A stretch of DNA of 64,000 bases from Bacteroidota bacterium (GCA_003151745.1 PLYJ01000069.1:13270-77269); one strand, 5' to 3'; shown: positions 28,862 to 57,447, counted from the first letter of the stretch. The notes: generated by a model not told the origin, from the sequence alone. Translations and numbers: made by a program.

Positions 28862-28901
28862 AGCCTCACCCCAACCCCTCTCCAAAGGAGAGGGGCTTTA
28901 A
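28862..28901. repeat. Intergenic copy of the GC-rich palindromic element (AGCCTC.CCCAACCCCTC..CAAAGGA..GGGGCTTT)
   Basis: Hairpin CCCCTCTCC-AAA-GGAGAGGGG with a CCTCACCCCAAC flank. It is nearly identical to the reverse complement of 56906-56943 inside the aminotransferase gene. Confidence 0.85.
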
Positions 28902-28905
28902 AAAT

Positions 28906-29361
28906 ATGAGTTTAGAAGAAAAAGTAAACGCTGATTTAAAAACTGCCATGCTGGCAAAGCAGGAGGCTGCTGTGCGAGGGCTTAGAGCAATTAAATCGGC
29001 GATCATAGTGGAGAAGACTTCGGGAGCAGGAGGAGTTATTTCTGCCGAGGCGGAGATGAAGATGCTGCAAAAACTGGTTAAGCAACGAAAAGAATCTGCT
29101 GACATATATGTGCAACAGAACCGTGCTGACCTTGCCAAGACAGAACAGGAAGAAATTGCTGTGATAGAAAAATATCTGCCGAAGCAGATGGATGAAAATG
29201 AACTGAGGGTGGAATTAAAAAAGATCATTGAAAATGTCGGAGCAAAAACCCTTGCCGATTTAGGCAAAGTGATGGGAGTAGCAAGCAAGCAATTTGCCGG
29301 TAAAGCCGATGGCAAGATGATATCTCAAATAGTAAAAGAACTTTTATCTGCCGGCGCCTGA
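28906..29361 (+). CDS. yqeY: GatB/YqeY domain protein
   Basis: The family-typical start (L...I..DLK.AMLAK) and size. Confidence 0.85.
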   Translation: MSLEEKVNADLKTAMLAKQEAAVRGLRAIKSAIIVEKTSGAGGVISAEAEMKMLQKLVKQRKESADIYVQQNRADLAKTEQEEIAVIEKYLPKQMDENELRVELKKIIENVGAKTLADLGKVMGVASKQFAGKADGKMISQIVKELLSAGA

Positions 29362-29630
29362 ACGACATGTTCGGACTGGCAAGGTTAGTTTTGTTTGTTT
29401 TCATGTTGTAAGTTGTAACCCTATACCTTAACCGGTGCAAGGTTTTTTTCTCTCAAAAATGGCTTTTTTAACGGCTTATTGTCTCTTTTAGGGCTTTTTT
29501 TATAGTACACATGTCCTATTTTGTCCTATAAACATAGTTTTTGCGTAAACTTCATGAATTGCCTGGTTTACGTGGCAGTAATACCGATTTAAGTTTTCTT
29601 CAAACCCCTGAAAAAACACCCTCCGTTTTA

Positions 29631-29925
29631 ATGAAACGTTAGCGCATTTCGTCGTGGCGTGATCACACTTTGATGAAGCGTCAGGGTATTTCGGTGTGGT
29701 GTGATCATACTTCAATGAAACGTCAGAGCATTTCGATGTGATGCGATCACACTTTGATGAAACGTCAGAGCATTTCGGTGTGGTGTGATCACACTTCGAT
29801 GAAACGTCAGAGCATTTTGTCGTGGTGTGATCACACTTCGATGAAACGTCAGAGCATTTCGCCGTGATGTGATCAAACTTCAATGAAACGTTAGAGCATT
29901 TTGTTCTGGTGTTAGAGCATTTTTG
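29631..29925. repeat. Tandem array 2: 7 units of exactly 42 bp, each holding the perfect palindrome GTGTGATCACAC plus a GATGAAACGTCAGAGCATTTC module
   Basis: ATGAA(A/G)CG starts at 29631, 29673, 29715, 29757, 29799, 29841 and 29883, all 42 bp apart. Confidence 0.95.
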
Positions 29926-30611
29926 AGATGAATTGGCTTTTTTTAATGAAAAAAGGGGATTGTGTAATTACAACGCAATTATTTATCACCCAAAGACCTT
30001 GTGCTAAACTGCGCCGAGCAGGGATTTCTAAGGTTGTGGTGATTGGTATGATTTGGTTGGATGGGCGTAGTTGGCCTACACACATGCCAACCTTAGAAAC
30101 TACACCCAACGGGGTTTTAATTTGTACTGTTGCGTCTGCATCAGTAACTGTTGACTTGGCTCCGATGGAGAGGGAGGAAGAAAATAGAGAGACTTGTAGG
30201 ATGCAGGGCTTTTTTGGTTTAAGTGAATTTGGAAATTGGATTTATAATTAAAAGTTATACATTTGCTCATAATAATTATAAAAGAAAAGAAATGTAGAAA
30301 GTAAAAGATAAATAGAATTGCGTTAGCAATATTCTTGCTTAGAAAACAGCGAATTTTCAAACATGTCAAGAATAAGCGAAACGCCCATGCAATGCGTGGG
30401 CTTAGCTTATTTGACATGTGGGTGCTTCGCTGTACCTCTAAGCAGATGGCTAATGTCCCACGCAGTTTTTTTATATACCCATGAGAAAATCTTTAAAATA
30501 ATAAAGGAGTATCCTGAAAATCCTAAAACAGAGTAAGGCGCGTAAGCTGAAAAGCGAATGAGTAGGCAAATGAAAAATAATGTCCTAAACAATTTAAAAT
30601 CAAAAAAGAAA

Positions 30612-31124
30612 ATGAAAAAGAAAAATTTATTAATCGCGGTTTTCGTAGTCGCAACAGCAATGTTTAGCGGATGTGCTAAGGATGGCGCAACTGGACCACA
30701 AGGTCCGGCAGGAACTAATGGAAGTGCTAATGTTAATACTGCATTATTTAACGTAACCCCGGGGCAATGGAATAATCCTTCATCAGGGTATTATAATTTT
30801 GGGATAGCTGATGCAGATATTACAAATTCGGACAATGATGTGGTAATGGTTTACATGCTAAGCGGACAAACAGGTGGTAGTGATACTTGGGTTTCATTAC
30901 CAATATCCAATTGGTTTGTCAGCGGTGATGATATGTATTTTACATACTTTGGAAGTAGCAGTGCAGCAGGAGAAATAGCACTTTATTATAATAGTTCTTC
31001 GGCTCAGAGTTCAACGCTTACTTTCAAGGCGGTAGTTATTCCTCCTGCTGCACGAATGGCGAATACAAATGTAAATTTAAAAAACTATGAAGAAGTTAAG
31101 GCAGCATTTAATTTGCAAGATTGA
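30612..31124 (+). CDS. Lipoprotein with a short collagen-like G-X-Y run, hypothetical
   Basis: MKKKNLLIAVFVVATAMFSGC lipobox followed by GATGPQGPAGTNGSA (5 G-X-Y triplets). An upstream in-frame ATG at 30558 is possible. Confidence 0.6.
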   Translation: MKKKNLLIAVFVVATAMFSGCAKDGATGPQGPAGTNGSANVNTALFNVTPGQWNNPSSGYYNFGIADADITNSDNDVVMVYMLSGQTGGSDTWVSLPISNWFVSGDDMYFTYFGSSSAAGEIALYYNSSSAQSSTLTFKAVVIPPAARMANTNVNLKNYEEVKAAFNLQD

Positions 31125-31175
31125 TTTTTTATCTTTGACCTCAAACCCTGACGTTTTGAAACGTCTGGGTTATTA

Positions 31176-31535
31176 ATGCACATGATGATAAACTTAGTTG
31201 CAAAACTTTCTGACGATAATATTATTACATTCCAAAAGACAAAAAGGAAAACGTGGAGTGAGCAAGGGAAAATTACTTTGCCTGCCCCGTGTAATAAAAA
31301 ATTAGATTCTATTTACGTACTTAAGGTTCATGATAGTATTGAAGTTTCGATTTTAATACCAAATCATGCAAGCACCCTATGTTACTTGTATCACGGTGAC
31401 AATAATAATACTCCATCTTATTATCAATTTCAAATTCCTATAGATGTTAGAGATTATTTGATAAAATATATTGCTGATAAAAAGAATATTAATTTTGAAT
31501 TTGATTTGAGAAAAAGAGAAGTAAAGATAAAATAA
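31176..31535 (+). CDS. Hypothetical protein (119 aa), AT-rich
   Basis: ORF only, with no motif. It lies in an AT-rich accessory patch. Confidence 0.35.
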   Translation: MHMMINLVAKLSDDNIITFQKTKRKTWSEQGKITLPAPCNKKLDSIYVLKVHDSIEVSILIPNHASTLCYLYHGDNNNTPSYYQFQIPIDVRDYLIKYIADKKNINFEFDLRKREVKIK

Positions 31536-31543
31536 ATTGGCTG

Positions 31544-31627
31544 CCCCGCTACGCAGGATTTTGTTAATGCTGCGTTTTCAAAACTTGGCAATCGTTTATT
31601 CTGTGCGCATTTATTTTCATTTTGTTT
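31544..31627. repeat. Conserved ~84-bp leader element (Y) of the DUF433 cassettes, copy 1
   Basis: High identity by eye (only a handful of mismatches) to 42547-42630. Contains the hairpin CGCAGGATT-TTGTT-AAT(G/C)CTGCG. Confidence 0.8.
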
Positions 31628-31712
31628 TTAACCTGTCAAGCCTTTAAAAACAACCCTTCACGTCCGTAGCTCAGCTATCTGATTCTTTTTTGCTTTGCGT
31701 GGCGCAAAGGGT

Positions 31713-31720
31713 TATCTTTG
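31713..31720 (+). promoter_or_regulatory. -7 box TATCTTTG upstream of the DUF433 gene
   Basis: Exact TAnnTTTG, 22 nt before the ATG at 31743. Confidence 0.4.
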
Positions 31721-31742
31721 GGGAAAAATAAATACTACTGCT

Positions 31743-31973
31743 ATGCAATACGGAGCCATCAACATTGATCCTGAAACAATGGGCGGAACAGCGGTTTTCA
31801 CCGGTACAAGAGTTCCCATCCAGGCAATCTTTGACTACATTGAAACAGGCGAAACATTAGAAGAATTTTTGGAAAATTTCCCAACTGTTTCCCACGAGCA
31901 AGCTCTTGAAGTTCTTGAAAAAGCAAAACGAAGCATAACATCAGAAAAGTTTTTGAATGAGAATTTTGCTTGA
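31743..31973 (+). CDS. DUF433 antitoxin-like protein
   Basis: IDPETMGGTAVFTGTRVPIQAIFDYIETGETLEEFLENFP is the typical DUF433 core. It overlaps the downstream partner. Confidence 0.8.
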   Translation: MQYGAINIDPETMGGTAVFTGTRVPIQAIFDYIETGETLEEFLENFPTVSHEQALEVLEKAKRSITSEKFLNENFA

Positions 31974-32283
31974 CGAAAACATTCCTGCTAAAGTCAAATC
32001 TGACTTTGGTAAAGACTTTGAGGTGAGAACTGTCAGAGATATGAGATGGTCTGGCAAAAAGAACGGAGAACTGCTTGGGCTTATTACATTTAATGGATTT
32101 GATTTTTTTATTACGCTTGATAAAAACCTGAAGCACCAGCAAAACCTTGCCAAATTTGATATAAAAATATTTATTCTGCTCGCGAAGGATAACAAACACC
32201 AGACGTTGCAGCCATTCATAGAGAAGGTGAAATATCTGCTAAAAAGTGAGGCATATAAAAAATTTAACGAAGTAGGGCTGTAG
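31957..32283 (+). CDS. DUF5615 (Mut7-C/PIN-like) toxin-like protein
   Basis: MRILLDENIP start with acidic residues of a PIN-like fold. Overlaps the DUF433 gene by 17 nt. Confidence 0.75.
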   Translation: MRILLDENIPAKVKSDFGKDFEVRTVRDMRWSGKKNGELLGLITFNGFDFFITLDKNLKHQQNLAKFDIKIFILLAKDNKHQTLQPFIEKVKYLLKSEAYKKFNEVGL

Positions 32284-32319
32284 CAAAAAACGGAAGATGA
32301 ACATCACATAAAAAGTTCA

Positions 32320-32547
32320 TCAGGCAACGTGTTTCAGGTTAGAGCCGGAAGTAAGAAGTTTTGCATATTGAAGGCAGGCAAGAATATCTTCCTTTTCGAG
32401 TTCAGGATGATCTGCAAGAATCTGTTGGATGGTCATCTCGGATGAAAGCATGTCAAGAATCACTTCTACAGGCCATCGCATACCTCTGATGCTTGGTTTG
32501 CCGTGACAGATTTCCGGTTGAATAGTTATTCTCTCAAGATAATTCAT
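32320..32547 (-). CDS. DUF433 protein without an adjacent partner
   Basis: ITIQPEICHGKPSIRGMRWPVEVILDMLSSEMTIQQILADHPELEKEDILACLQYA. The ATG at 32547 is preferred over the longer ORF. Confidence 0.75.
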   Translation of the reverse strand: MNYLERITIQPEICHGKPSIRGMRWPVEVILDMLSSEMTIQQILADHPELEKEDILACLQYAKLLTSGSNLKHVA

Positions 32548-32632
32548 AGTTATTCTTTGATTGCTCAAATTTACGTTATTCCTTCCGAAACTCAAACTAA
32601 AGGAAATTAAATGACGCTGGTATAGGCATAAG

Positions 32633-32664
32633 AAAACCCTGCCTTATCGGCAGGGTTTTTTTAT
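32633..32664. terminator. Rho-independent terminator downstream of groEL (usable on both strands)
   Basis: AACCCTGCC-TTAT-(C)GGCAGGGTT flanked by an A-run and a T-run. Confidence 0.8.
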
Positions 32665-32705
32665 CCTTTATTGCTTCTCGTGGAGAAGGCTTCAAAACGG
32701 ATTTC

Positions 32706-34382
<1,677 letters not shown>

Positions 34383-34458
34383 TTAATTAGACTTGAGTAT
34401 TAGATATTAGATTTGAGACAAAGGGGATTATCTAATGTCTCACGTCTCATATCTCTTT

Positions 34459-34749
34459 TTAAAGAATTGCGAAAATGTCGCTTTCACGCATAATAAGGTA
34501 TTCCTTATTTTCTACCGTGATTTCTGTACCGGCGTATTTACCATATAAAATGGTGTCGCCAACCTTTACAGTAGGTTTGTTTCCTTTTTCATCCACTTCG
34601 CTGATGGAAAGAACCTTGCCTCTTTGAGGTTTTTCTTTCGCTGTGTCAGGAATGATGATTCCGCTTGCTGTCTTTTCTTCCGCGGGAGCAGGCTCAACCA
34701 AAACTCTGTTTTGGGTGCCCGCAATTGGCTTGATACTTACTTTACTCAT
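34459..34749 (-). CDS. groS: Co-chaperonin GroES
   Basis: 96 aa, immediately upstream of groEL. Contains the mobile-loop region TASGIIIPD. Confidence 0.97.
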
Positions 34750-34823
34750 GTTGTTTAAATAGTTAAAAGGTTAAATATTAATTAGGAATTGTTGATCTTC
34801 CTGAAAACCTCGGGAAGAGTGAA

Positions 34824-34839
34824 TCCCGCACGTGCGGGA
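34824..34839. repeat. Perfect 16-bp palindrome TCCCGCACGTGCGGGA upstream of groES
   Basis: An identical 16-mer occurs at 40474-40489 inside the miaB 5' region. Confidence 0.8.
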
Positions 34840-34974
34840 GTGAAAACCCTGTTGTCAGATACCATGCCAGTAACGCTTTTTGTCATTTTTTCCATTTTTG
34901 AACTCCCTTTAATGAAAAGATGTCACCTTAGTAGTGCCCATCATGACATTTTTGACCTGATCTAAGGGATTAGG

Positions 34975-35343: not shown

Positions 35344-35371
35344 GAATTTGAGATTTGAGATTTGATCCCGA

Positions 35372-36709
35372 TTATTCGGGATGATTTTCTTTTAAAATGT
35401 TGTTTATTTTTTCAATAAAGGGTGCAAAGGAAGCACTTTTTTCGGGATATAGCAAGGTCAATCTTTCATAGCAGGAACGGGCTTTTGGATAGTTTCCCTG
35501 ATCAAAATAGATGCGGGCAAGTGTTTCGGAGATAATGTCTTCATTATCAATAATGCTCTGCCTTGCCATGTTGGCAGGAGAATAGAATTCAGTCTTTGGG
35601 GGAGCTATTCTTGGGGCTGCAGCGATGAATTTATCAATTAAAGCCCCCCTATCCCCCGAAGGGGGGGAGATAATTTCATCTTTTCGATTATAATCGGATG
35701 AAAGCGGTTCGTCTTTAACTTCTTCAACTGTTGTATGTCCACCACTCTTCCGTTTTAACCAATCTATAAAGGAGATGGCTCCCCCACCCCCCAAAGGGGG
35801 GACTGGCTCCGAAGCTTTATTCAAGTCGGCTTCCCCCCTTTGGGGGGCGGCGGGGCTTATCTCAGGCAACTTTTCTAATTCCTGTAAATAGTTTTCTTCA
35901 ATGATGGTTTCTATTTCAAGGCCTTCTATCTCATCCATCGGTTCTGCGGGTAACTTATCGAGAACGGAATGTGTAGTTGATTCTTCCTCCTTGACGACAG
36001 GTAACTCTGCGGTAGCAACCTTTTCTTCTTTTACTTCTTCCTTGCTGCTGATTGCTTTTTCAATAGTTGGAGGAATTGCTTCAGAAATTATTTCCTGTTC
36101 CGCAGGTTTATTCTTTGCAAGAATTTCACTTAGCCGCCTGCGGATTATTTCTTCATTGGTGGTTGCAGGTTCATCAAAGGCAGGTGTTAAAGGTTCAGCG
36201 ACACTTTTCTTTTCTTCAATTATTTTTTCTTGCTGAATTTCGGGTTCTTCCCTGTATTTCGATTCAGGTTCAACGGCTGTTGTATTTTCTCTAAATGAAG
36301 AAGTATTTTCTTTGATTTCAAAAGCAGGTGTTTCAATTGACTCTTCGCTTTCTGATGAAAGTGCAAATTGTTTGTCTGACAATACTTCACTTGATTTAAA
36401 GGATGATTCTTGACTTAAAGGTTGTTTTTGTTCAATAACAAAAACATTGCTTTCCTCATCCGCTGTTTGCTTTGTAGTTTCATCATTGATAAGATGAAAC
36501 AACACTTTACGGTCAGCAGCATAAGCCGATGCTGTTTTTAATTCTGAATGAAAATGAATGCTTCCCTGGTTGTGAAAGCTCTTCGCCAATAATAACCGTG
36601 TAGTCTGGAAATAAGGAAACGTGCGGACAATATCCCACAATTCGGAAGTTTCTTCTTTTGAAGAGGTGCCTTTATTTTCTATCAATTTAATTAAACGCTG
36701 TCTTTCCAA
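35372..36709 (-). CDS. Hypothetical protein with a conserved N- and TPR-like C-terminus and an acidic low-complexity middle
   Basis: 445-aa ORF in the secG-lptE neighbourhood. The C-terminus LARIYFDQGNYPKARSCYERLTLLYPEK is TPR-like. The middle carries GC-palindrome insertions. Confidence 0.65.
   Translation of the reverse strand: MERQRLIKLIENKGTSSKEETSELWDIVRTFPYFQTTRLLLAKSFHNQGSIHFHSELKTASAYAADRKVLFHLINDETTKQTADEESNVFVIEQKQPLSQESSFKSSEVLSDKQFALSSESEESIETPAFEIKENTSSFRENTTAVEPESKYREEPEIQQEKIIEEKKSVAEPLTPAFDEPATTNEEIIRRRLSEILAKNKPAEQEIISEAIPPTIEKAISSKEEVKEEKVATAELPVVKEEESTTHSVLDKLPAEPMDEIEGLEIETIIEENYLQELEKLPEISPAAPQRGEADLNKASEPVPPLGGGGAISFIDWLKRKSGGHTTVEEVKDEPLSSDYNRKDEIISPPSGDRGALIDKFIAAAPRIAPPKTEFYSPANMARQSIIDNEDIISETLARIYFDQGNYPKARSCYERLTLLYPEKSASFAPFIEKINNILKENHPE
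35787..35847. repeat. Bipartite GC palindromic element inside the CDS (CCCCCCAAAGGGGGG ... CCCCCCTTTGGGGGG)
   Basis: Two perfect C6-N3-G6 hairpins at 35787-35801 and 35833-35847. A third related site is at 35646-35668. All are read through in frame (PVPPLGGGGA, APQRGEA, SPPSGDRGA). Confidence 0.85.
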
Positions 36710-38977: not shown

Positions 38978-40528
38978 TTATTTTACTGCTTCACCCATCA
39001 ACGTAGCCTTCGTGCAATCCGTTACCAATACATTGACGTAATCACCCGGTTTATATTGTTCTCTCGGAAAGATTACTACTTTATTCTGATCGTTTCTTCC
39101 TGAAAGATGCTTGTCCGATCTTTTTGAAACAGCATCAGCCAGCACGCGAGTCACTTTATTCAAATCTTTCAGATTGCTTCTGTGAGAAAGGTTTGATTGA
39201 AGATCAATGATCTCCTGCAATCGTCTTGCTTTCACTTCTTCGGGAATATCATCTTTAAATTTTCGTGCTGCATGAGTACCCGGTCTCTCCGAATATTTGA
39301 ACATATAGGAATATTCAAACCCCGCCCAATCCATCAGCGAAAGAGTTTCCCGATGTTCTTCTTCCGTCTCGCTGCAAAAGCCTGTAATGATGTCGCTTGA
39401 AATGCCGCAATCAGGAATGATATTGCGAATAGATTCAATTCGCTTCATATAATCTTCTCTTGAATATCCTCGATTCATATTTTCAAGCACAACGCTGCTG
39501 CCTGATTGCACAGGCAGGTGAACATAGTTGCATATATTATCGTATTTCGCGATCAGGTGCAATACCGCATCTGTCATGTCACGCGGATTGGAAGTGGAGA
39601 AGCGCACACGCAGCTCAGGATTAACTTTTGCAACCATCTCCATCAGGTCAGCAAATGTGATGAAATTCTTTTGTTCTTTTTCAGGAAGCCGATGATTCAT
39701 GGCTGCATGAATAACATCCTGCGGTAAATCTTTTTTTGCACCTCCTCCTGACTGCGCCTTCGCGTAGCCCTTATATTTTTCATTTTCTTCCATTGTTGCT
39801 TCGGCGAAGCGAGGCCATAAATAAGAATCCACATTCTGCCCCAGCAAAGTCACTTCTTTATATCCATCCACAAAAAGCTGCTGTGCTTCATTAACTATTG
39901 ATTGCGGATCGCGGCTCCGTTCTCTTCCGCGTGTAAAAGGAACCACACAGAATGAACACATATTATCACATCCCCGTGTAATAGATATAAATGCAGAAAT
40001 ACCATTGCTGCCAAGCCGCACAGGGCTTAACTCAGCATACGTCTCTTCCAGCGACAAAATAACATTCACTGCCTTTTGTCCCGTTTCTACTTTAGCTATC
40101 AGGTTCGGAAGATCACGGTAAGCATCAGGCCCGACGACAATATCAACCAGCTTTTCCTTTTCAAGCAAAGTTGTTTTCAATCGTTCAGCCATGCAGCCAA
40201 GCACGCCGATAATGAGGTCGGGCTTCTTTCTTTTCTTCGCTCTGAAATCTTTGAGCCGCGCCCAAATTTTTAATTCCGCATTATCTCTTATAGCGCAGGT
40301 GTTGAGGAAAATCACATCGGCATCATCGGTTGTATTTGTTGTTTGAAAACCAATGCCTGTCATGATACTCGCTATAATCTCACTGTCTGAAAAATTCATG
40401 GCGCAGCCATAACTCTCAATGTAGAAAGCCCCCCTTTCCCCCAAAGGTGGGTGATGACTTTCATGCGGGCTTAGTCCCGCACGTGCGGGATTGGGGGAGG
40501 CTTCTATATTATTTTCTTCAAATGACAT
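38978..40528 (-). CDS. miaB: tRNA-2-methylthio-N6-dimethylallyladenosine synthase
   Basis: [12 protein letters not shown]-terminal cluster region, radical-SAM [11 protein letters not shown], and a TRAM C-terminus. ATG 40528 is chosen. An alternative TTG lies at 40444 inside the palindromic element. Confidence 0.9.
40427..40503. repeat. GC palindromic element in the miaB 5' end
   Basis: GCCCCCCTTTCCCCCAAAGGTGGG ... TCCCGCACGTGCGGGA-TTGGGGGAGGCTT. The tail matches the AGCCTCCCCAA flank of the copies at 28862 and 56906. Confidence 0.8.
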
Positions 40529-40659
40529 ATTAAAACCCTCTTTTAAAGGGCTTGCAAAGATAAAGGTTGTCGGCACTTTTTGACAATTTGGCAGAAAAAA
40601 ATGGAAAGGGTGTCATTATGGCAAATACTTGGATATGTATAGAAAGTAAAACCATGCAT

Positions 40660-40833
40660 GCGGTACACTTTACCGTGGTGGCGGTAAACCTTACCGTGAT
40701 GGCGGTAAACCTTACCGCGATGGCGGTACACTTTACCGTTGTGACGGTAAACCTTACCGCGATGGCGGTAAACCTTACCGTGGTGGCGGTAAACCTTACC
40801 GTTGTGGCGGTAAACCTTACCGTGATGGCGGTT
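40660..40833. repeat. Tandem array 3: ~8.3 units of 21 bp, each holding the palindrome CGGTAA-ACC-TTACCG
   Basis: GGCGGTAAACCTTACCG(T/C)G(A/G)T is repeated head to tail with no indel. Confidence 0.95.
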
Positions 40834-40900
40834 TAATATACCTAAATGCCCTTTTTAAGTGTTTTTTGCACATTTATGCCATTTTCATGCCTTTTGTTAT

Positions 40901-40971: not shown

Positions 40972-41118
40972 ATGAAAAGAATTATTCCGAAACCAACCGT
41001 TTTTGATACATCACCCTTTTTTGTTATTCAAAAGATAACCCTCATGAGTTTTTGAAAACTTATCGGGCGTTTTGTATTTAATAAAAGATGAAGTTCTAAA
41101 TATCTCTACGTTTGTGAT

Positions 41119-41157
41119 TGTAACTCCGACGAAGTTTGGAACTTCGTCGGAGTTTAG
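41119..41157. repeat. Full TGTAAC-prefixed hairpin element
   Basis: TGTAAC-TCCGACGAAGTTTGGAACTTCGTCGGA-GTTTAG, with a perfect 11-bp stem. Confidence 0.85.
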
Positions 41158-41268
41158 TTTTCATGACGGTGTGCCTTCTGCCATGGTTTCTATTACGCTG
41201 GCTGCATAAACTTTTTTGTTATTCAATAGGAAACCCTGATGGCGAAAGCTGTCGGGGTTTTGCTTTAT

Positions 41269-41308
41269 TGTAACCTCCCCGAAGTTTGGAACTTCGGGGA
41301 GGTTGGGA
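41269..41308. repeat. Full TGTAAC-prefixed hairpin element (compensated variant)
   Basis: TGTAAC-CTCCCCGAAGTTTGGAACTTCGGGGAG-GTTGGG. Stem changes relative to 41119 are compensatory (GACG/CGTC to CCCG/CGGG). Confidence 0.85.
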
Positions 41309-41376
41309 TTTCACCTTCGATGAATACGAGGAACAAAGACTACTTGATGTTATCTTGATGTTATCTATAAATATTT

Positions 41377-42450: not shown

Positions 42451-42546
42451 CCCTGTAAGGCCTTTAAAAACAAAATGATTCCCTAAACATTCCCTTAACC
42501 CCTCAGATTTCTTCTTTTCATTACTTTGCGCCCTCCAATTTAAAAA
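42451..42546. repeat. ~95-bp direct repeat (X), left copy, flanking the DUF433/DUF5615 cassette
   Basis: Roughly 85% identical by eye to 43278-43373 (CCTTTA..GG.CTTTAAA...CCCTAAACATT.CCTTAACC.CTCAG.TTT.TTCTTTTCATTACTTTGCGCCCTCCAATTTAAAAA). Confidence 0.85.
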
Positions 42547-42630
42547 TCCCGCTACGCAGGATTTTGTTAATCCTGCGCTTTCTAAACTTCGCAACAGTTT
42601 ATTCTTCGCGCATTTATTTTCATTTTGTTT
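42547..42630. repeat. Leader element (Y) of the DUF433 cassettes, copy 2
   Basis: See 31544-31627. Confidence 0.8.
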
Positions 42631-42646
42631 ATGAGCCATTAAGGGT

Positions 42647-43277: not shown

Positions 43278-43373
43278 CAACCCTTTAGGGTCTTTAAAGC
43301 AGGCATTCCCTAAACATTTCCTTAACCTCTCAGGTTTTTTCTTTTCATTACTTTGCGCCCTCCAATTTAAAAA
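43278..43373. repeat. ~95-bp direct repeat (X), right copy, forming the upstream region of the M16 peptidase gene
   Basis: See 42451-42546. Confidence 0.85.
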
Positions 43374-50575: not shown

Positions 50576-50581
50576 TTAAAA

Positions 50582-50645
50582 GCGTTATATGTTATATGTT
50601 AAACGTTATTAGGAATAATGCCGTATAACGATTAACATATAACTT
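50582..50645. repeat. Hairpin with GTTATAT-type arms
   Basis: GTTATATGTTAAACGTTAT pairs with GTATAACGATTAACATATAAC. Confidence 0.7.
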
Positions 50646-50658
50646 TTAACTTGATTCT

Positions 50659-51948
50659 TTATAAGCTCCAATAAGTAAGTTCCTTGATTTTGCCTCTGTA
50701 AGTTCCTTTCACATCCACCAGCAGCGCATTGTTGTTGGTGATTGATTTAAAATACGCTTCATCAAAAGCTTTGTATTCTTTATGATTGACAGCAACAATT
50801 ACAGCATCATAATCCTTTCCAATCTTATCTGTCAATTCAAAGCCGTATTCTTTTTTCAAATGCTCCGATTCGGCGAGAGGATCGGTTACCTCCACCTGCA
50901 CGCCGTAAGAAATCAATTCCTTTATCACATCGGCTACTTTAGAATTGCGGGTGTCGGACACATCTTCTTTAAATGTGGCTCCCATGACAAGCACCTTTGC
51001 CTTGCCTACATCCTTGCCCCCGGAAATGATTCTCTTTACCGTTTGCTTGGCAATGTAAAAGCCCATGCTGTCGTTTACATATCGTCCTGAGTTGATGACC
51101 TGTGCATGATAGCCCAACGACTGTGCTTTATGTGTGAGATAATAAGGATCAACGCCTATGCAATGTCCTCCAACAAGGCCCGGAAAAAAACGGATAAAGT
51201 TCCATTTGGTGCCTGCTGCTTCCAGCACTTCGTAAGTATCAATGCCCATCTTATTGAAGATGATGCTAAGCTCGTTCATTAATGCAATGTTCACATCCCG
51301 TTGCGTGTTTTCAATAATCTTGGCAGCTTCGGCAACCTTGATGGACGATGCTTTGTGCACGCCGGCTTGCACAATGATGCTGTATGTCTTAGCAATGGTC
51401 TCAAGCGCCTCTTCATCGCATCCGGAAACTACTTTCAAAATTTTTGTAATGGTGTGTTCCTTATCCCCCGGGTTAATACGTTCAGGAGAGAAACCAACTT
51501 TGAAATCTGTTTTGAATTTTAATCCGGAAAGTTCTTCAAGAAGCGGAACACAATCTTCTTCCGTGCAGCCGGGGTATACCGTTGATTCATATACGACGTA
51601 ATCACCCTTCTTCAGCACTTTACCGATAAAACGTGTTGCACCTAACAAAGGACGCAGGTCGGGAAGGTTATGCTCGTCAATGGGCGTCGGAACTGTTACT
51701 ATATAGAAAGACGCTTTGCGGAGATCTTCAACATTGGAAGTAAACTCAATGTCGCATCCCTGGAAGGCTTCCTTTTCCAATTCGCCGCTTGGATCATCTC
51801 CCTGCCGCATTCTTGCTAATCGCTTGTCATCAATGTCGAAACCGATAACGGAAATCTTTTTTGCAAACTCTAATGCAATTGGCAAGCCAACATAACCAAG
51901 GCCTAACACGGCTAACTTTGTCTTTTTCTCTATTAATTCTTTATACAT
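50659..51948 (-). CDS. Nucleotide-sugar (UDP-N-acetylhexosamine) 6-dehydrogenase, TviB/WbpA/WbpO-like
   Basis: LGLGYVGLP Rossmann motif, catalytic-Cys region GGHCIGVDPYY, and ~430 aa. Confidence 0.8.
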   Translation of the reverse strand: MYKELIEKKTKLAVLGLGYVGLPIALEFAKKISVIGFDIDDKRLARMRQGDDPSGELEKEAFQGCDIEFTSNVEDLRKASFYIVTVPTPIDEHNLPDLRPLLGATRFIGKVLKKGDYVVYESTVYPGCTEEDCVPLLEELSGLKFKTDFKVGFSPERINPGDKEHTITKILKVVSGCDEEALETIAKTYSIIVQAGVHKASSIKVAEAAKIIENTQRDVNIALMNELSIIFNKMGIDTYEVLEAAGTKWNFIRFFPGLVGGHCIGVDPYYLTHKAQSLGYHAQVINSGRYVNDSMGFYIAKQTVKRIISGGKDVGKAKVLVMGATFKEDVSDTRNSKVADVIKELISYGVQVEVTDPLAESEHLKKEYGFELTDKIGKDYDAVIVAVNHKEYKAFDEAYFKSITNNNALLVDVKGTYRGKIKELTYWSL

Positions 51949-51953
51949 TTTTT

Positions 51954-52033
51954 AATAAGTAATAATGAAAAAGGAAAAAGGAATAAAAGTCGCTCATTGA
52001 GCTTTATTCATTAGTCCTTATTATTTATTCATT
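51954..52033. repeat. Hairpin with AATAAG/GAATAA-type arms, paralog of 56169-56249
   Basis: AATAAGTAATAATGAAAAAGGAAAAAGGAATAAAAG pairs with CTTTATTCATTAGTCCTTATTATTTATTCATT. Both arms align with those of 56169-56249. Confidence 0.8.
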
Positions 52034-53069
52034 TCTCTTTAATTTTTTTCATATCCCGAAGCGCATATATGCGTTCAATGATCTCAACTACTTTTAATCC
52101 TTCCAACGCATTGGTTGTTGCCGTTGTCCTTCCCTTCAGCGTGTCAATTACATTTTCGATGATGAAGTGGTGATTTGCAGCCGAACCTTTATACGCACCG
52201 TAATCATTCGGCGGAGAACTTGCTGCTAATTTAGGTAGCGTGTAATCTTTAATATGACAGTATTCCACATCATTCATATACTGACCGCCTATTTTCACAC
52301 TTCCTTTTGCTCCGATTATTGTAATGCTGCTCTTGAGGTTACTGTCCCATACGGCGGTTGAGTAATTAATACTTCCCATGCCGCCATTGATAAAATTGAA
52401 AGCTACCATACCCGAATCTTCGAAGGCAGTTGAGTCGCCGTGGTTAAAGTCGCCGAACTTAGCCTGTATGTCCTTAATATCACCAAACAACCAATACATG
52501 ATGTCAATGAAGTGAGAGAATTGTGTAAACAATGTTCCGCCATCCAGATCAGACGTTCCCTTCCATCCTCCTTTTTTATAGTATCGTGCATCACGGTTCC
52601 AATAACAATTGAGCTGTACCAGGTATATATCGCCTAACAATCCATCATCAACTACCTGTTTAATCCAAACGGAAGGAGGTGAATATCGGTTTTGCATGAC
52701 GCAAAAAACATGACGTGATACCTGGAGCGCTTTAAAAATAATTTTTTCGCAATCATTTTTCGTTAGCGCCAAAGGCTTTTCACACACTACATGAATTTTG
52801 TTTTCAAGAGCGATCAATGAATGCTGTGCGTGTAAGCCATTGGGAGAGCAAACGTCCACTACATCGGGGTGTATGTTGCTTTGAATCAATTCTTCAACAG
52901 TTGCAAAAAAAGGGACATTGTATTCTTCAAGTCCTAAATCTTTTTCCGGTTTCACATCACACATGGCAACAAGTTCCGCTTCCGGATTCCTGCGAATCAT
53001 TTCAGCATGACGTTTTCCAATGTGTCCGCTGCCTACTACTGCAAAACGTATTTTCCTGTCGGTGTACAT
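52029..53069 (-). CDS. Gfo/Idh/MocA oxidoreductase, WbpB-like (UDP-GlcNAcA 3-dehydrogenase candidate)
   Basis: IRFAVVGSGHIGKRH Rossmann start and EKP motif. The context includes WbpD/WbpE-like genes. ATG 53069 is chosen. Confidence 0.75.
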   Translation of the reverse strand: MYTDRKIRFAVVGSGHIGKRHAEMIRRNPEAELVAMCDVKPEKDLGLEEYNVPFFATVEELIQSNIHPDVVDVCSPNGLHAQHSLIALENKIHVVCEKPLALTKNDCEKIIFKALQVSRHVFCVMQNRYSPPSVWIKQVVDDGLLGDIYLVQLNCYWNRDARYYKKGGWKGTSDLDGGTLFTQFSHFIDIMYWLFGDIKDIQAKFGDFNHGDSTAFEDSGMVAFNFINGGMGSINYSTAVWDSNLKSSITIIGAKGSVKIGGQYMNDVEYCHIKDYTLPKLAASSPPNDYGAYKGSAANHHFIIENVIDTLKGRTTATTNALEGLKVVEIIERIYALRDMKKIKEK

Positions 53070-53156
53070 ATATTTTGATGTGCAGATTAGCTGATGTGCA
53101 AATGTGCGGATTAAAAAGTGCATCTGCACATCCTCACATCTTCAAATTGTTTTTTA

Positions 53157-53741
53157 TTACTCTACTCGCTTCACTTTATGCCCTTCCAGTGAATATTTTT
53201 GTTTGCTCTCCGGGCAAATTGCGATGCCGGTTGTATCGAATTTAAGACGATGTCCGTACTCACTCATCCATCCTATTTGTTTGGCGGGATTGCCAACTAC
53301 TAATGCGTAAGCGGGAACATGCTTGGTTACAACAGCACCAGCACCAATAAATGCGAATTCACCAATATTGTGCCCACAAACGATTGTTGCATTAGCGCCA
53401 ATAGATGCGCCTTTGCCTACATGTGTTCGCAGGTATTGCCCTCTTCTGTTTACTGCGCTGCGGGGATTGTTTATATTCGTGAATACCATCGAAGGTCCAA
53501 GAAAGACATCCTCGTCGCACACTATTCCTGTATATATTGAAACATTATTTTGAACTTTACAGTTCTTTCCAAGCACTACTTCAGGGGAAATAACAACGTT
53601 CTGGCCAAGGTTGCAGTTTTCACCAATCACGCAATTGGACATGATGTGTGAGAAATGCCAGATGCTGCTTCCTTTTCCAATCTTACATCCGTCATCTACG
53701 ACTGCCGTAGGATGAACAAAAAATTCACTCTTAGTATCCAT
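53157..53741 (-). CDS. Left-handed beta-helix N-acetyltransferase, WbpD-like
   Basis: Hexapeptide repeats. The IWHFSHI...GQNV...VQNNVS...GPSMVFTN..NPRS pattern is typical of WbpD-type UDP-2-acetamido-3-amino-2,3-dideoxy-glucuronate N-acetyltransferases. Confidence 0.8.
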   Translation of the reverse strand: MDTKSEFFVHPTAVVDDGCKIGKGSSIWHFSHIMSNCVIGENCNLGQNVVISPEVVLGKNCKVQNNVSIYTGIVCDEDVFLGPSMVFTNINNPRSAVNRRGQYLRTHVGKGASIGANATIVCGHNIGEFAFIGAGAVVTKHVPAYALVVGNPAKQIGWMSEYGHRLKFDTTGIAICPESKQKYSLEGHKVKRVE

Positions 53742-53797
53742 CTTTAAGATTTAAATTGTAAGATTTAAGCTGTAAGATAAAATCGATGCGTATGCGA

Positions 53798-54778
53798 TTA
53801 AACCTTTTCTCCAAATCTTACATTTTCATACAGTTCTTCTTTAGAAAGGTTTTTAAAATATTGGTATGTAACTTGCAATCCTTGAGCACGATTTACTTTT
53901 GGCTCCCATCCGAGAATTTTCTTTGCCCGTGTAATGTCAGGCTGACGCTGCTTAGGGTCGTCCTGCGGAAGAGACTTGTTTACAATTTTTTGCACTGTTC
54001 CTGTAAGCTTTATGATTTCTTCTGCAAATTCTTTGATTGTAATTTCATCGGGATTGCCAACATTGACCGGATAAGCATAATCACTCATAAGCAAGCGATA
54101 AATACCTTCGACCAAATCATCAACATAGCAAAAGGAACGTGTTTGAGAGCCATCACCAAAAACGGTAAGGTCTTCGCCGCGCAAAGCCTGCCCAATGAAT
54201 GCCGGCAAAGCTCTGCCATCATTCAGCCGCATACGCGGGCCATACGTGTTGAAGATACGCACAATTCTTGTTTCCACCTGGTGGAAGGTATGATACGCCA
54301 TGGTGATAGCTTCCTGGAAACGCTTGGCTTCATCATAAACGCCGCGCGGACCAACAGGATTGACGTTGCCCCAATAATCTTCATTTTGAGGATGCACTTG
54401 CGGATCACCATAAACTTCAGATGTAGAGGCGACAAGAATACGCGCCTTCTTTGATTTTGCAAGGCCTAACAGGTTATGCGTGCCAAGCGATCCGACTTTT
54501 AATGTTTGTATTGGAATCTTGAGATAATCAATCGGGCTGGCAGGAGATGCAAAATGAAGAATGTAATCAAGTTGCCCGGGCACGTGAACAAACTTAGAAA
54601 CATCGTGATGATAAAATTCAAACTCTTTTAGCTTGAAGAGATGCTGAATATTTTTCATGGAACCTGTAATGAGGTTATCCATGCCAATTACGAGATACCC
54701 CTCTTTGATGAAGCGATCACAAAGATGGGAACCGAGAAAACCGGCAGCGCCTGTAATTAATACTCTTTTACTTGCCAT
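53798..54778 (-). CDS. UDP-glucuronate decarboxylase (UDP-xylose synthase)
   Basis: [29 protein letters not shown] and YDEAKR motifs. ATG 54778 is chosen. Confidence 0.85.
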
Positions 54779-54785
54779 ATATTTC

Positions 54786-54853
54786 GGTTTAAAGTTCAAC
54801 GTTTAGGGTTTAAAGGTATGAATCAGCACTACCTTAAACCTTAAACCTTAAAC
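54786..54853. repeat. Hairpin with GGTTTAA-type arms
   Basis: GTTTAGGGTTTAAAGGTA pairs with TACCTTAAACCTTAAACCTTAAAC. Confidence 0.75.
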
Positions 54854-56163
54854 TATTTCACAATTTCTCTTCCAATGCTATTATAATAAAATCCAAGCTC
54901 TTTCATCTGCACGGTATCATAAAGATTACGTCCGTCGAATATGACTTTACTTTTTAATAGCAATAACATTTTGTCAAAGTCAGGCGTGCGAAACAATGCC
55001 CATTCTGTAGCAATGAGTAATGCATCAGCGCCCGGTAACGCTTTATACGGATCAGCTGTATAATCAATTTTGTCACCGATAGCAAGCTTCACATTTTTCA
55101 TTGCTTCCGGATCGTAAGCGGAAATGCTTGCGCCCTCCTTTAGTAAGGCATCAATAATATATAATGAAGGAGCTTCACGAACATCATCCGTATCAGGCTT
55201 GAATGAAAGACCCCAGAGAGCAAATCTTTTTCCTTTCAGATTTCCGTTGTAATAGTTTTTTATCTTATCTACCAGAACTAACTTTTGTTTCTCATTCACT
55301 TCCATGACCGATTTCAAAAGCTTGAAATCATATTTGTAATCGTTCGCCGTTCTTTCCAGCGCCTGCACGTCTTTAGGGAAGCAGCTTCCGCCGTAGCCAA
55401 TACCCGCAAAGAGGAAGCGTTTGCCAATACGCGCATCGGAACCCACGCCTACACGAACCATATCCACGTTAGCACCTACAAGCTCGCAGAGGTTAGCAAT
55501 CTCATTCATGAACGTGATTTTGGCTGCAAGAAAAGAATTAGCCGCATATTTGGTGAGCTCTGCAGAGCGTTCATCCATGTGATAAACAGGATTGCCCTGG
55601 CGGACGAAAGGAGCAAAGAGCTCACCCATGATCTTTCCTGCTTTCTCCGAACTGCTTCCTATCACTACACGGTCAGGCTTCATAAAATCATCCACTGCAT
55701 AGCCTTCACGCAGAAACTCAGGATTGCTCACTACATCAAACTCCACTTTGCAATGTTTCGCAATTGCATTTTTTACTTTCTCGGCAGTGCCCACAGGAAC
55801 AGTGCTTTTATTCACCACCACCTTGTATTCTTTAATAAGAGAGCCAAGCTCTTCCGCTACCTGCAAAATATGTTTCAGATCAGCAGAGCCGTTTTCATCA
55901 GGTGGCGTAGGCAAGGCAAGGAAAATGACTTTTGCATCGCGGATGCCTTCTTCCAAAGAAGTGGTGAACTTCAGACGGCGTTGCTTTATGTTTCGCTGAA
56001 ACAAACCATCCAGGTGTGGTTCGTAAATCGGTATCTCACCATTCTGCATCTTCTGCACCTTGGCTTTGTTATTGTCCACACATACAACATGCACACCGGT
56101 TTCGGCAAAGCATGTGCCTGTTACTAATCCAACGTATCCGGTTCCTACAACGGCAATGTTCAT
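54853..56163 (-). CDS. ugd: UDP-glucose 6-dehydrogenase
   Basis: VVGTGYVGLV start and catalytic region GYGGSCFPKD. Confidence 0.92.
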   Translation of the reverse strand: MNIAVVGTGYVGLVTGTCFAETGVHVVCVDNNKAKVQKMQNGEIPIYEPHLDGLFQRNIKQRRLKFTTSLEEGIRDAKVIFLALPTPPDENGSADLKHILQVAEELGSLIKEYKVVVNKSTVPVGTAEKVKNAIAKHCKVEFDVVSNPEFLREGYAVDDFMKPDRVVIGSSSEKAGKIMGELFAPFVRQGNPVYHMDERSAELTKYAANSFLAAKITFMNEIANLCELVGANVDMVRVGVGSDARIGKRFLFAGIGYGGSCFPKDVQALERTANDYKYDFKLLKSVMEVNEKQKLVLVDKIKNYYNGNLKGKRFALWGLSFKPDTDDVREAPSLYIIDALLKEGASISAYDPEAMKNVKLAIGDKIDYTADPYKALPGADALLIATEWALFRTPDFDKMLLLLKSKVIFDGRNLYDTVQMKELGFYYNSIGREIVK

Positions 56164-56168
56164 ATCGT

Positions 56169-56249
56169 AATAAGTAAAAATGAATAAGGAATAAGGAATA
56201 AAAAGTAAAACATTGCTCTTTATTAATTATTACTTATTCATTATTCATT
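56169..56249. repeat. Hairpin with AATAAG/GAATAA-type arms, paralog of 51954-52033
   Basis: AATAAGTAAAAATGAATAAGGAATAAGGAATAAAAAG pairs with CTCTTTATTAATTATTACTTATTCATTATTCATT. Confidence 0.8.
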
Positions 56250-57447
56250 TTAAAAACTCAAGTACTGAATCCACAATATACTTCAATGTATCTTCATCCA
56301 ACTCCGTATGCATGGGCAGTGAGATCACACTCTTGCAAAGCATTTCAGTAACCGGAAAATCACCTTCCTTATAACGCGGATCAGGAAATGCTTTCTGCAT
56401 GTGCAATGGCACAGGATAATAGATCATGGCAGGAATTTCTTTTGATGCAAGAAACTCACGCAGCCTGGTGCGGTCAGCATTTTTAAGAACAAGCGTATAT
56501 TGATGAAACACATGATCTGAATAAGAAGCATGCTTCGGCGTAACGATCTTAGGATGATTTGCAAATGCCTTATCATAATAGTCTGCTGCCTTGCGGCGGG
56601 CTGCTGCATATTCATCTAAATGACGAAGCTTGATGCGAAGAATAGCCGCTTGCAAACTATCCAGTCGTGAGTTTACTCCAATCTCATCATGATAATATTG
56701 CACGCTTTGCCCATGATTAGCTACCATGCGCGCCTTCTTTGCCAAAGCATCATCGTTTGTATATAGCGCTCCGCCGTCACCATAGCATCCAAGGTTCTTA
56801 GAAGGAAAGAAAGAAGTGCATCCTACTGTGCCAATTGTTCCCGCTTTGGCCCCTCTGCCCCCCAAAGGGGGGTGCTGCATCACAATTTCATTTGAGGATT
56901 GCGCGGTGGAAAGCCCCTCCTTTGGAGGGGTTGGGGAGGCTGAATAATAATTCGCTCCTATTGCCTGCGCCACATCTTCAATCACTGCCAGATTATGCTT
57001 CTTCGCAATCTTCATGATGGCATCCATATCAGCACATTGCCCGAAGAGATGAACAGGAACAATGGCTTTTGTCTTGGGAGTAATTGCAGCCTCAATAGCT
57101 TTCGGATCAATGCAAAAAGTATCAGGCAGCACATCCACCAGCACAGGCTTCAGCTTTAATAAAGCAATCACTTCAGCAGTGGCAACATACGTAAAGCTGG
57201 CAGTAATCACTTCATCACCCGGTTGAAAGCCCAATGCCATCATGGCAATTTGCAGCGCATCGGTTCCATTGGCGCAAGGGATAACATGCTTCACGCCAAG
57301 ATATTTTTCAAGCTCAGATTGAAAGTTCTTTACTTCAGGTCCGTTAATGAAGGCTGTGGAATGAATCACATCAAGCACAGCCTTATCTATCTCTGGTTGA
57401 ATTTTCTGGTATTGGGCTGCCAGGTCAACCATCATTATTTTCTTCAT
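56245..57447 (-). CDS. DegT/DnrJ/EryC1/StrS-family aminotransferase, WbpE-like, carrying an in-frame ~32-aa insertion
   Basis: MVDLAAQYQKIQPEID start, NGTDALQIA, PLP-lysine region TSFFPSKNLGCYGDGGA, and NSRLD. ATG 57447 is chosen. The longer ORF to 57693 crosses a hairpin and a divergent promoter. Confidence 0.9.
   Translation of the reverse strand: MKKIMMVDLAAQYQKIQPEIDKAVLDVIHSTAFINGPEVKNFQSELEKYLGVKHVIPCANGTDALQIAMMALGFQPGDEVITASFTYVATAEVIALLKLKPVLVDVLPDTFCIDPKAIEAAITPKTKAIVPVHLFGQCADMDAIMKIAKKHNLAVIEDVAQAIGANYYSASPTPPKEGLSTAQSSNEIVMQHPPLGGRGAKAGTIGTVGCTSFFPSKNLGCYGDGGALYTNDDALAKKARMVANHGQSVQYYHDEIGVNSRLDSLQAAILRIKLRHLDEYAAARRKAADYYDKAFANHPKIVTPKHASYSDHVFHQYTLVLKNADRTRLREFLASKEIPAMIYYPVPLHMQKAFPDPRYKEGDFPVTEMLCKSVISLPMHTELDEDTLKYIVDSVLEFLK
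56850..56945. repeat. Bipartite GC palindromic element inserted in frame in the aminotransferase gene
   Basis: CCCCCCAAAGGGGGG (56858-56872), then a spacer, then CCCCTCCTTTGGAGGGG-TTGGGGAGGCT (56914-56941). It encodes SASPTPPKEGLSTAQSSNEIVMQHPPLGGRGA. Confidence 0.85.

Follow-up and report, generated by a model that had tools for sequence, protein, structure and literature searches.

In a 64-kb stretch of a Bacteroidota genome (GCA_003151745.1 PLYJ01000069.1:13270-77269; hereafter the window, GC content 41%), short GC-rich palindromic elements occur both between genes and in frame inside protein-coding genes. These copies are probably nuclease-less derivatives, similar to the Rickettsia palindromic elements (RPEs), of a mobile family whose intact form would consist of a left end, an open reading frame (ORF) for a DUF559 nuclease (a Vsr-like PD-(D/E)xK enzyme), and an inverted right end. 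A reading of the window made from its sequence only had described the elements as a bipartite family with shared modules and had likened them to RPEs. An in-frame insertion family of this kind is supported, although the resemblance to RPEs is functional only, and the modules appear from sequence comparisons to be the two ends of the DUF559 nuclease element.

The basic unit in the window is a C-run (GCCCC..), followed after 1-5 nt by a perfect hairpin, e.g., CCCCCC-AAA-GGGGGG, and has four plus-strand copies and one in inverted orientation (repeat families D7 and D17). When one genome per species was scanned with the pattern CCCC-N1-6-CCCCCCAAAGGGGGG, at least 117 loci matched (numbered with the prefix L below), and further copies of the proposed family therefore exist elsewhere. 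Among the matches listed, most of the loci belong to Chitinophagaceae/Chitinophagales (Ferruginibacter, Segetibacter, Lacibacter, Parasediminibacterium), and others to Prevotella, Paludibacter, Saprospiraceae, Flavobacteriia, and some Chloroflexota and Spirochaetota. In the same set, 82 of 122 distinct hits lie inside ORFs of at least 150 aa, an inverted partner is found 6-100 nt away in about one fifth of hits, and all six reading frames are used (PPLGG 31, PPKGG 19, PQRG 15, PPFGG 8, PLWG 6, other 3). Because every frame is used, the conserved entity is the DNA and not the peptide. Some site is occupied in several species, yet in different reading frames.

Several Chitinophagaceae have, in MetRS, MetH, and LeuRS, a stretch of about 120 residues between the module and an inverted module, beyond which the host sequence continues. 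These inserts match Pfam DUF559 (E = 1e-30 to 7e-37) and the solved DUF559 protein in PDB 3hrl (E = 1.5e-22), and have a weak match to the group I intron homing endonuclease I-Bth0305I (3r3p, E = 0.02). DUF559, Vsr, and I-Bth0305I have been placed in one PD-(D/E)xK group (PMC3424549). Among the matches listed, DUF559 is present at 12 of 117 loci and immediately adjoins the module at 11 of these. In all cases where the locus is long enough, hundreds of host residues precede and follow DUF559 within a single uninterrupted ORF (three times in MetRS, three times in MetH, once in an adenine deaminase-like gene, and in LeuRS). Such ends enclose DUF559 ORFs in other Bacteroidota as well. The partner element of the short copies encodes only a DUF559 nuclease domain.

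An alignment of 11 domains was used to fetch 80 metagenome loci by DUF559 similarity alone. Counting as embedded in frame those with an ORF of at least 80 aa upstream and at least 100 aa downstream of DUF559, 69 of the 80 are embedded, and GC hairpins flank 73 (both sides in 42, one side in 31). Among 58 distant DUF559 genes on viral contigs, taken as a control, none was embedded and none had hairpins. These comparisons show that the hairpin ends and this DUF559 subfamily are specifically associated.

Each end starts with AGCC(C/T)CCC and, after 1-5 nt, closes with a perfect C/T-rich hairpin whose loop is usually AAA or GAA. Stems vary (CCCCCC, CCCCC, TCCCC, CCCCTCC, CCCTCC, CCCCTTCCC, CCCTCTCC, CTCCCCC, and others), and all are perfectly complementary. 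The order of C-run, C-run, and G-run would also fit the geometry of an intramolecular C+·G-C triplex, a candidate that was set aside. Both ends have the same loop in 20 of 54 elements against 6.6 expected, a number reached by none of 5000 shuffles, with GGT, ACA, AAC, and GTG as unusual loops; unusual stems are likewise common to both ends, and the two ends of one element appear to evolve as one unit. No stop codon occurs in the ends in any frame, and they have a Pro/Gly-rich coding capacity (PPKGG or PQRG on one strand, PPLGG on the other), so that a conserved protein can accommodate an element in frame and without splicing, within a linker or surface loop and usually shortly before a strongly conserved motif. 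In the nuclease itself, D58, E69, D71, and H75 (L154 numbering), together with E29, W33, D84, R87, and N103, are invariant in 91 of 91 DUF559 copies, although for two nuclease motifs part of this uniformity is artificial, since the scan itself was run with them as patterns. None of the 91 copies has an internal stop, and the nuclease looks functional from its sequence.

Host sites adjoin conserved motifs. The most frequent are MetH before GDVHDIGKN (42 loci) and MetRS before YVWFDAP (10 loci), followed by CinA (7), the IcmF P-loop (5), a second MetH site (5), and adenine deaminase (4), with further cases in MiaB-like, IleRS, and LeuRS genes. By analogy, positions next to conserved motifs (MetH, MetRS, the IcmF P-loop, the pyridoxal phosphate (PLP)-lysine of DegT) are typical targets of homing elements. 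The nucleases cluster partially by host site, with 60 of 77 nearest neighbours from the same site, a pattern that is confounded with host taxonomy. Other arrangements also occur. In L323 and L341, the DUF559 element at the korA/korB junction is free-standing and has a start and a stop of its own; its left end forms the KorA C-terminal tail and its right end the KorB N-terminal extension. It is free-standing before argC in L318 and L339, and fused to the C-terminus of IspG in L314.

Ends of short copies can be matched to those of this element. In the window's DegT-family aminotransferase gene, the N-side end GCCTCCCCAACCCCTCCAAAGGAGGGGCTTT is identical at 31 of 31 positions to the left end of the DUF559 element in MetRS of L276, and the C-side end at 25 of 26 positions to the right ends of the DUF559 elements in L311, L287, and L275. 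From these identities, the 'bipartite' structure would be what remains of one element, its left and its right end, after loss of the interior. Similarly, the solo end between ftsZ and yqeY has the architecture seen at the left end of DUF559 elements in L276, L290, and L311. At the adenine deaminase site, DUF559 lies between the ends in L206, L209, L224, L291, and L301, while in Parasediminibacterium paludis (L172) both ends are present along with the right subterminal stretch (16 of 19 positions identical to L209) and the nuclease is gone. In-place loss of the nuclease, with both ends retained at the same site, is shown by this alignment, and MetRS is a second site of such loss. There, the empty-site duplex is GTTCCGCTGGAAGATGCGGAAGGCAAAGTG; no element is present in 117 of the 120 closest homologues, and the other 3 have short inserts without a nuclease. 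Occupation of sites is sporadic. The MetRS site is filled in L154, L183, L242, L266, L270, L276, and others, and several taxa have an element at the MetH site, as is also true of adenine deaminase and of IcmF.

Alignment of orthologues, which the sequence-only reading had recommended, shows that the segments are missing from DegT, MiaB, and 445-aa ORF homologues. The window copies are, on this comparison, insertions (gains) and not ancestral linkers, and presence/absence polymorphism between close relatives is shown by the same alignments. Neither outcome that the sequence-only reading had named as refuting, the same segments in all distant orthologues or a lack of additional copies, was observed. 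The window DegT protein (P0001), which is encoded on a metagenome contig of 83 kb, is 94% identical outside the insert to P0002, which is empty and has an ordinary 8-residue loop, KFADGTLK, where the window protein has 33 element-encoded residues. About 115 further homologues also lack the insert, and one homologue (P0003, 81% identical) has another double element at precisely this loop. Filled DegT alleles have flanking residues in common. For MiaB, nearly all of the 120 listed homologues begin MSFEENKVIDESRQGEV..., a variable stretch that the window element replaces, and in five further lineages this N-terminal linker holds different family variants, e.g., SPSFGGVGEA, the translation of AGCCCCTCCTTTGGAGGGGTTGGGGAGGCT. 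Window miaB and the empty P0121 are 90-98% identical along the length of the gene; over the first 50 alignment columns (the element and the junction RGAFYIE), however, identity is 59% to the more distant P0132 and 30% to P0121, a mosaic such as recombinational transfer with co-conversion would leave. Homologues of the 445-aa protein (at most 43% identity) have unrelated sequence at the module positions, and the modules are absent. Target-site duplications, another check that had been proposed, were absent from the three filled/empty comparisons (DegT, MetRS, and miaB), and host loop codons were lost or replaced. Elsewhere in miaB (39752-39814, minus strand), a window-specific 21-aa insert lies in an internal loop and is missing from the 90-98% identical P0121; other lineages have GNGE/EK-rich inserts of 10-40 aa in this loop.

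The same comparisons bear on the idea that the segments are ancestral low-complexity Pro/Gly linkers, or artefacts of assembling homopolymer runs. The elements do lie in variable linkers and loops, the contig was assembled from a metagenome, and other contigs (L026, L159, L186) contain some poly-C/G artefacts. However, nearly all orthologues lack the segments, the same DNA is read in all six frames, the host frame is kept in every copy, and ends of identical sequence recur in unrelated genes and across independent assemblies, isolate genomes among them. Orthologue comparisons and frame preservation exclude this explanation, to which we attach almost no probability. Accumulation by point mutation, as for DNA uptake sequences, was also considered, since the elements replace host sequence, and was rejected as a misfit with a 27-nt motif of extreme composition and with the DUF559 link.

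The proposed explanation is a homing-like spread driven by DUF559, which we infer as follows. The nuclease would break empty alleles, and recombinational repair would copy the element in together with flanking host sequence. Later, internal deletion would remove the nuclease and leave a 76-94 nt 'bipartite palindrome' or a solo end, tolerated as a loop. Under such break and repair with flanking sequence, loop codons would be replaced, target-site duplications would be missing, and miaB would be a mosaic, all as observed, and the conserved-site targets and the sporadic distribution would also fit. As in homing elements, the nuclease belongs to a family with proven homing endonucleases (DUF559 E-values to 7e-37), and the same conserved site is occupied sporadically.

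Several points weigh against such a nuclease-driven family. No homing or transposition activity has been demonstrated for DUF559, and the match to a proven homing endonuclease is weak; the scan patterns behind part of the residue invariance are a further caution. The dozens of different host sites are not easily explained by a single recognition specificity, and a single DUF559 cluster contains members from four host genes. That the elements are translated is deduced from ORF continuity. No DUF559 gene was found in the window or in L001, nor in L003 or the viral loci, and nuclease-less copies far outnumber nuclease-bearing ones. Finally, compact copies of 64-76 nt in metagenome-assembled genomes of Chloroflexota and Spirochaetota are mostly intergenic with no DUF559 nearby, so that the hairpin repeat could be an independent element. 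The hairpin modules might then be comparable to miniature inverted-repeat transposable elements (MITEs) or REPINs and be moved by another enzyme, e.g., an IS200-type single-strand transposase or a RAYT, a transposase associated with repetitive extragenic palindromes (REPs), with DUF559 a passenger that homes between two ends. The majority of nuclease-less copies, the commonness of solo ends, the compact double hairpins outside ORFs, the occurrence of the same module in phage replication genes without DUF559, and the DUF559 cluster spanning four host genes all agree with a passenger, as does the MobA precedent, in which one endonuclease was swapped for another within a mobile cassette (bioRxiv 10.1101/2022.08.31.505936). 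However, the hairpins stand at 73 of 80 DUF559 loci chosen regardless of hairpins and never at distant DUF559 genes, and the short form at the adenine deaminase site keeps subterminal sequence of the DUF559-bearing form. The GTAG/CGTC tag of RAYT-associated REPs is missing from the ends. No transposase was noticed near any copy, although no systematic search for one was made, and no RAYT turned up, in loci on which no search aimed at RAYT was made. The specificity of the association and the adenine deaminase comparison favour a single unit of ends and nuclease, and we regard an independent repeat with a passenger nuclease as unlikely.

The compact 64-76 nt double hairpins have the form AAGCCCCCCCGG-CCCCCCAAAGGGGGG-spacer-CCCCCCTCTGGGGGG-TTAGGGGGG and were found in L190, L202, L216, L235, L259, and L260 (Chloroflexota and others), mostly outside long ORFs with the exceptions of L259 and L260. 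In ten viral loci (L007, L017, L031, L035, L065, L086, L089, L102, L111, and L122), the module ACCCCCCTA-CCCCCCAAAGGGGGG lies in the linker of phage replication-organizer proteins, whose N-terminal domains are unrelated (DUF1376, HTH_36, Lin1244_N). The homologues L035 and L065 have it in different frames. No DUF559 was found in the viral loci carrying the module, which could be a recombination junction or a solo end. A phage replication-origin motif, prompted by the occurrence in these genes, was rejected, as it leaves the chromosomal copies unexplained.

Within the window, all copies listed in the sequence-only reading were recovered, with bounds refined to those in Table 1. The near identity it had seen between 28862-28901 and the reverse complement of 56906-56943 holds, as does a local GC content far above that of the host (61-77% in the elements against 41%).

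Table 1. Palindromic elements of the window and the genes that host them.
Feature	Position	Strand	Context and parts
Solo element end	28862-28899	+	Fills the spacer from the ftsZ stop (28858-28860) to the yqeY ATG (28906); prefix AGCCTCACCCCAA, 9-bp hairpin CCCCTCTCC/AAA/GGAGAGGGG, then CTTT
Perfect 16-nt palindrome TCCCGCACGTGCGGGA	34824-34839	no strand	Between secG and groES, upstream of groES
Solo element end AGCCCCCCTATCCCCCGAAGGGGGGG	35642-35667	-	Within the ORF of the 445-aa tetratricopeptide repeat (TPR) protein; repeat families D7, D17
Double-hairpin element, 81 nt (27 codons)	35777-35857	-	445-aa ORF; two inverted ends around a 30-nt spacer
Double element	40427-40502	-	miaB 5' part; N-side AAGCCTCCCCCAA + 16-mer palindrome; C-side AGCCCCCCTTTCCCCCAAAGGTGGG (plus-strand reading)
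Double element	56848-56941	-	DegT-family aminotransferase gene; N-side AGCCTCCCCAACCCCTCCAAAGGAGGGGCTTT; C-side GGCCCCTCTGCCCCCCAAAGGGGGG (plus-strand reading)
Host gene, 445-aa protein with C-terminal TPR domain	35372-36709	-	Between secG and lptE
Host gene miaB (UPF0004, Radical_SAM, TRAM domains)	38978-40528	-	Likely start MSFEEN at 40528
Host gene, DegT/DnrJ/EryC1/StrS aminotransferase	56245-57447	-	Likely start MKKIMMVDL at 57447

The genes at or around the elements encode FtsZ, YqeY, SecG, the TPR protein, LptE, MiaB, and the DegT-family aminotransferase. Four of the five clear copies are intragenic, and hairpin elements account for 4 of the 8 GC islands in the window. A second version of the unit has another stem, AGCCTC(A)CCCCAA and then CCCCTC(TC)C-AAA-G(GA)GAGGGG, and is found in the ftsZ-yqeY spacer and, inverted, in the aminotransferase gene. 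The pattern CCCCNNNCCCCCCAAAGGGGGG, with up to 3 mismatches, matches 6 distinct sites in the window against 0.01 expected from shuffles, and for the 29-nt right-end pattern 0.00 are expected by chance. The 16-mer TCCCGCACGTGCGGGA (folding z = -3.3) has two exact copies in the window, the one upstream of groES and one at 40475-40490, which forms the N-side hairpin of the miaB element. At the position held by the 16-mer in window miaB, the homologue P0132 has a usual hairpin, CCCCTCCAAAGGAGGG; the left hairpin of the window copy has thus been replaced by the sequence that is solitary upstream of groES. The groES-upstream site is indeed a perfect 16-mer with a second copy in miaB, but, having no AGCC-C-run prefix, it is an uncertain member of the family.

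All three host ORFs are open through the elements without stops, and the host frame is kept in every copy. This bears out the expectation that the hairpins are stop-free and encode peptides of the PPLGG, PPKGG, or PPKEG type. The peptides are SPPSGDRGA, SPAAPQRGE...HPPLGERGA, and SASPTPPKEG...HPPLGGRGA, and the window elements are apparently translated as Pro/Gly loops. In the 445-aa protein, SPPSGDRGA (from 35642-35667, minus strand) stands immediately N-terminal of a conserved LIDxFI motif, and the translation of 35777-35857 is SPAAPQRGEADLNKASEPVPPLGGGGA. The miaB element encodes 24 residues where the empty allele has about 81 nt of variable linker. In DegT, the translation SASPTPPKEGLSTAQSSNEIVMQHPPLGGRGA replaces the 8-aa loop just upstream of the PLP-lysine motif FFPSKNLG. 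An AlphaFold2 model of the DegT protein renders the insert as coil (pLDDT < 50), in a model of mediocre quality (mean pLDDT 64), and gives weak support to a disordered loop. The 482-aa DegT ORF (56245-57693) opens at an upstream GTG; homologue alignment places the real start at MKKIMMVDL (57447), and the 82 codons upstream of it are probably untranslated.

Hairpins of this kind could also be retained as DNA or RNA structures (terminators, attenuators, translation-pause or protein-binding sites), with mobility incidental. The ftsZ-yqeY hairpin folds at -10 kcal/mol (z = -3.3), and the 35777-35857 element as a whole at -27.4 kcal/mol (z = -3.9, equalled by none of 200 shuffles). Whole elements fold as long hairpins with z = -1.9 to -3.9, which is expected from their symmetry and therefore says little on function. 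A structural role would agree with perfect stems kept through many compensatory variants, with the conserved loop orientation, with one site occupied in several species in different frames, and with an intergenic copy exactly between ftsZ and yqeY. However, the closest relatives do well without the elements, the host sites have no function in common, the intergenic hairpin is not followed by a U-tract, and the apparent conservation is biased upward because the search selected perfect motifs. No Rfam family matched the elements either, in scans of the window at the gathering threshold, of 28.7-57.1 kb at the E-value threshold, and of seven element-bearing loci. A structural or regulatory role of individual copies is possible, but it leaves the distribution of the family unexplained, and as an account of the whole it seems improbable. 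The derivation of the window copies from a nuclease-bearing element is preferred.

The family has features in common with several known systems. RPEs (Ogata et al., 2000, as cited in PMC3733652) are described there as short palindromic repeats of intergenic regions and of functional genes, in which they lie in frame and apparently add loops to the protein, and here too a palindromic repeat lies in frame in functional genes and is missing from orthologues. In contrast, the elements described here are GC-rich C/G-homopolymer hairpins in a 41% GC Bacteroidota genome and form the ends of a nuclease-encoding element, so that membership among RPEs is implausible and the likeness functional. We know of no coding partner for RPEs. 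Intragenic REPs are 20-40 nt palindromes, often inverted dimers encoding 20-30 aa, inside conserved genes such as uvrA and those of tRNA synthetases (Di Nocera et al., 2013, PMC3733652). However, REPs carry a GTAG/CGTC tag (PMC3733652), whereas all ends here begin (A)GCC(C/T)CCC, and REPs are mostly extragenic, whereas about two thirds of the present copies are intragenic (82 of 122 hits, among the matches listed).

Unspliced insertion of a nuclease into a host ORF has its nearest described precedents in the ShiLan domain and the MobA cassette, both of which differ in nuclease family, frame, and ends. The ShiLan domain of a phage methylase is an insertion that is neither intein nor intron, leaves the frame open, and carries an endonuclease (PMC11855218). 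It has an out-of-frame HNH nuclease, no hairpin inverted ends, and a single host gene, whereas the present element has an in-frame DUF559, hairpin inverted ends, and many host genes. The MobA/gene 60 element of T4-like phages deletes or replaces tens of host nucleotides and keeps the host protein functional by an adaptor sequence; the nuclease is often lost while the adaptors stay, and some MobA variants have Vsr-family nucleases (bioRxiv 10.1101/2022.08.31.505936). However, MobA splits the host gene and uses translational bypass, whereas here the host ORF is continuous and the adaptors are the palindromic Pro/Gly-coding ends. Inteins with homing-endonuclease domains, and the EDxHD/Vsr-like I-Bth0305I, are likewise found in frame at conserved sites of essential proteins, have a sporadic distribution, and involve nucleases of the Vsr/DUF559 clan (PMC2677866, PMC3424549). 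Here, in contrast, no Hint or splicing domain was detected, and the insert apparently stays in the mature protein.

Splicing of the inserts was considered in several forms. An intein was rejected, since a Pfam search of the inserts found DUF559 only and no Hint domain, and the C-side junctions end ...GGGGA or ...DLGG with no terminal His-Asn. A group I or II intron was rejected on the Rfam scans of the window and the seven element-bearing loci, which found no intron family, and continuous ORFs also argue against splicing. Translational bypass or splicing is unlikely in view of the continuous in-frame ORFs at 69 of 80 loci.

MITEs and the GC clusters and double-hairpin elements of fungal mitochondria are short non-coding derivatives with terminal inverted repeats like those of a longer coding element; GC-rich double hairpins occur in AT-richer genomes and can lie in coding sequence. 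The present family likewise has terminal inverted repeats common to the short copies and the longer coding element (the DegT ends, and the short and long forms at adenine deaminase). It differs in having no target-site duplication, in a partner that encodes a PD-(D/E)xK nuclease and no recognised transposase, and in its bacterial host. In agreement with the sequence-only reading, which knew of no established description for Bacteroidota, no account of a hairpin-bounded in-frame DUF559 element or of such palindromes in Bacteroidota was found in the searchable, and incomplete, literature. The link of the palindromes to this element is, as far as can be told, a new variant of homing/MITE biology. 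More tentatively, the family might represent an undescribed class of selfish elements: a minimal PD-(D/E)xK (DUF559) nuclease gene with hairpin inverted ends that double as Pro/Gly linker codons, which would sit as an unspliced extra domain in essential proteins (MetH, MetRS, LeuRS, IleRS, IcmF, CinA), spread by break-induced recombination, and decay to RPE-like palindromes.

In-frame palindromic repeats have so far been a curiosity mostly of Rickettsia, of unknown source, and are here tied to a coding partner in Bacteroidota, which makes their origin, spread, and decay testable. If true, the proposal would give a general origin for 'protein-coding palindromes' and a natural set of nuclease domains with long target sites in conserved genes. 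Besides inteins and introns, it would provide a third route for a nuclease gene within an essential gene, in frame and with its own flexible linkers. The elements also point to positions at which conserved enzymes can take up 10-170 additional residues, information of use in protein engineering, and account for odd Pro/Gly-rich inserts and length outliers in automatic annotations. Cultured carriers are available for experiments, e.g., Parasediminibacterium paludis CECT 8010, which has module copies.

Other repeats of the window are distinct from the GC-rich family. Four intergenic tandem arrays, unrelated in sequence to the GC hairpins, have periods of 21 nt (23265-23672, 40640-40870, 58560-58729) or 42 nt (29627-29962), and the one immediately upstream of miaB consists of about ten copies of CGGTAAACCTTACCGTGATGG. 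Hairpin repeats of 47 nt, ATTGTAAC-TCCGACGAAGTT-TGG-AACTTCGTCGGA-GTTTAG, lie at 22518-22564, 41117-41163, and 41267-41313. Two further intergenic repeats, 31545-31640 with 42548-42643 (96 nt, 85% identical) and 42478-42546 with 43305-43373 (69 nt, 94% identical), may represent common promoter or leader regions. Positions 30504-30539, which shortly precede the ORF at 30558-31124, are a near-threshold match to the Rfam DUF805b RNA motif (34.8 bits against a gathering threshold of 35.6, E = 1.8e-6).

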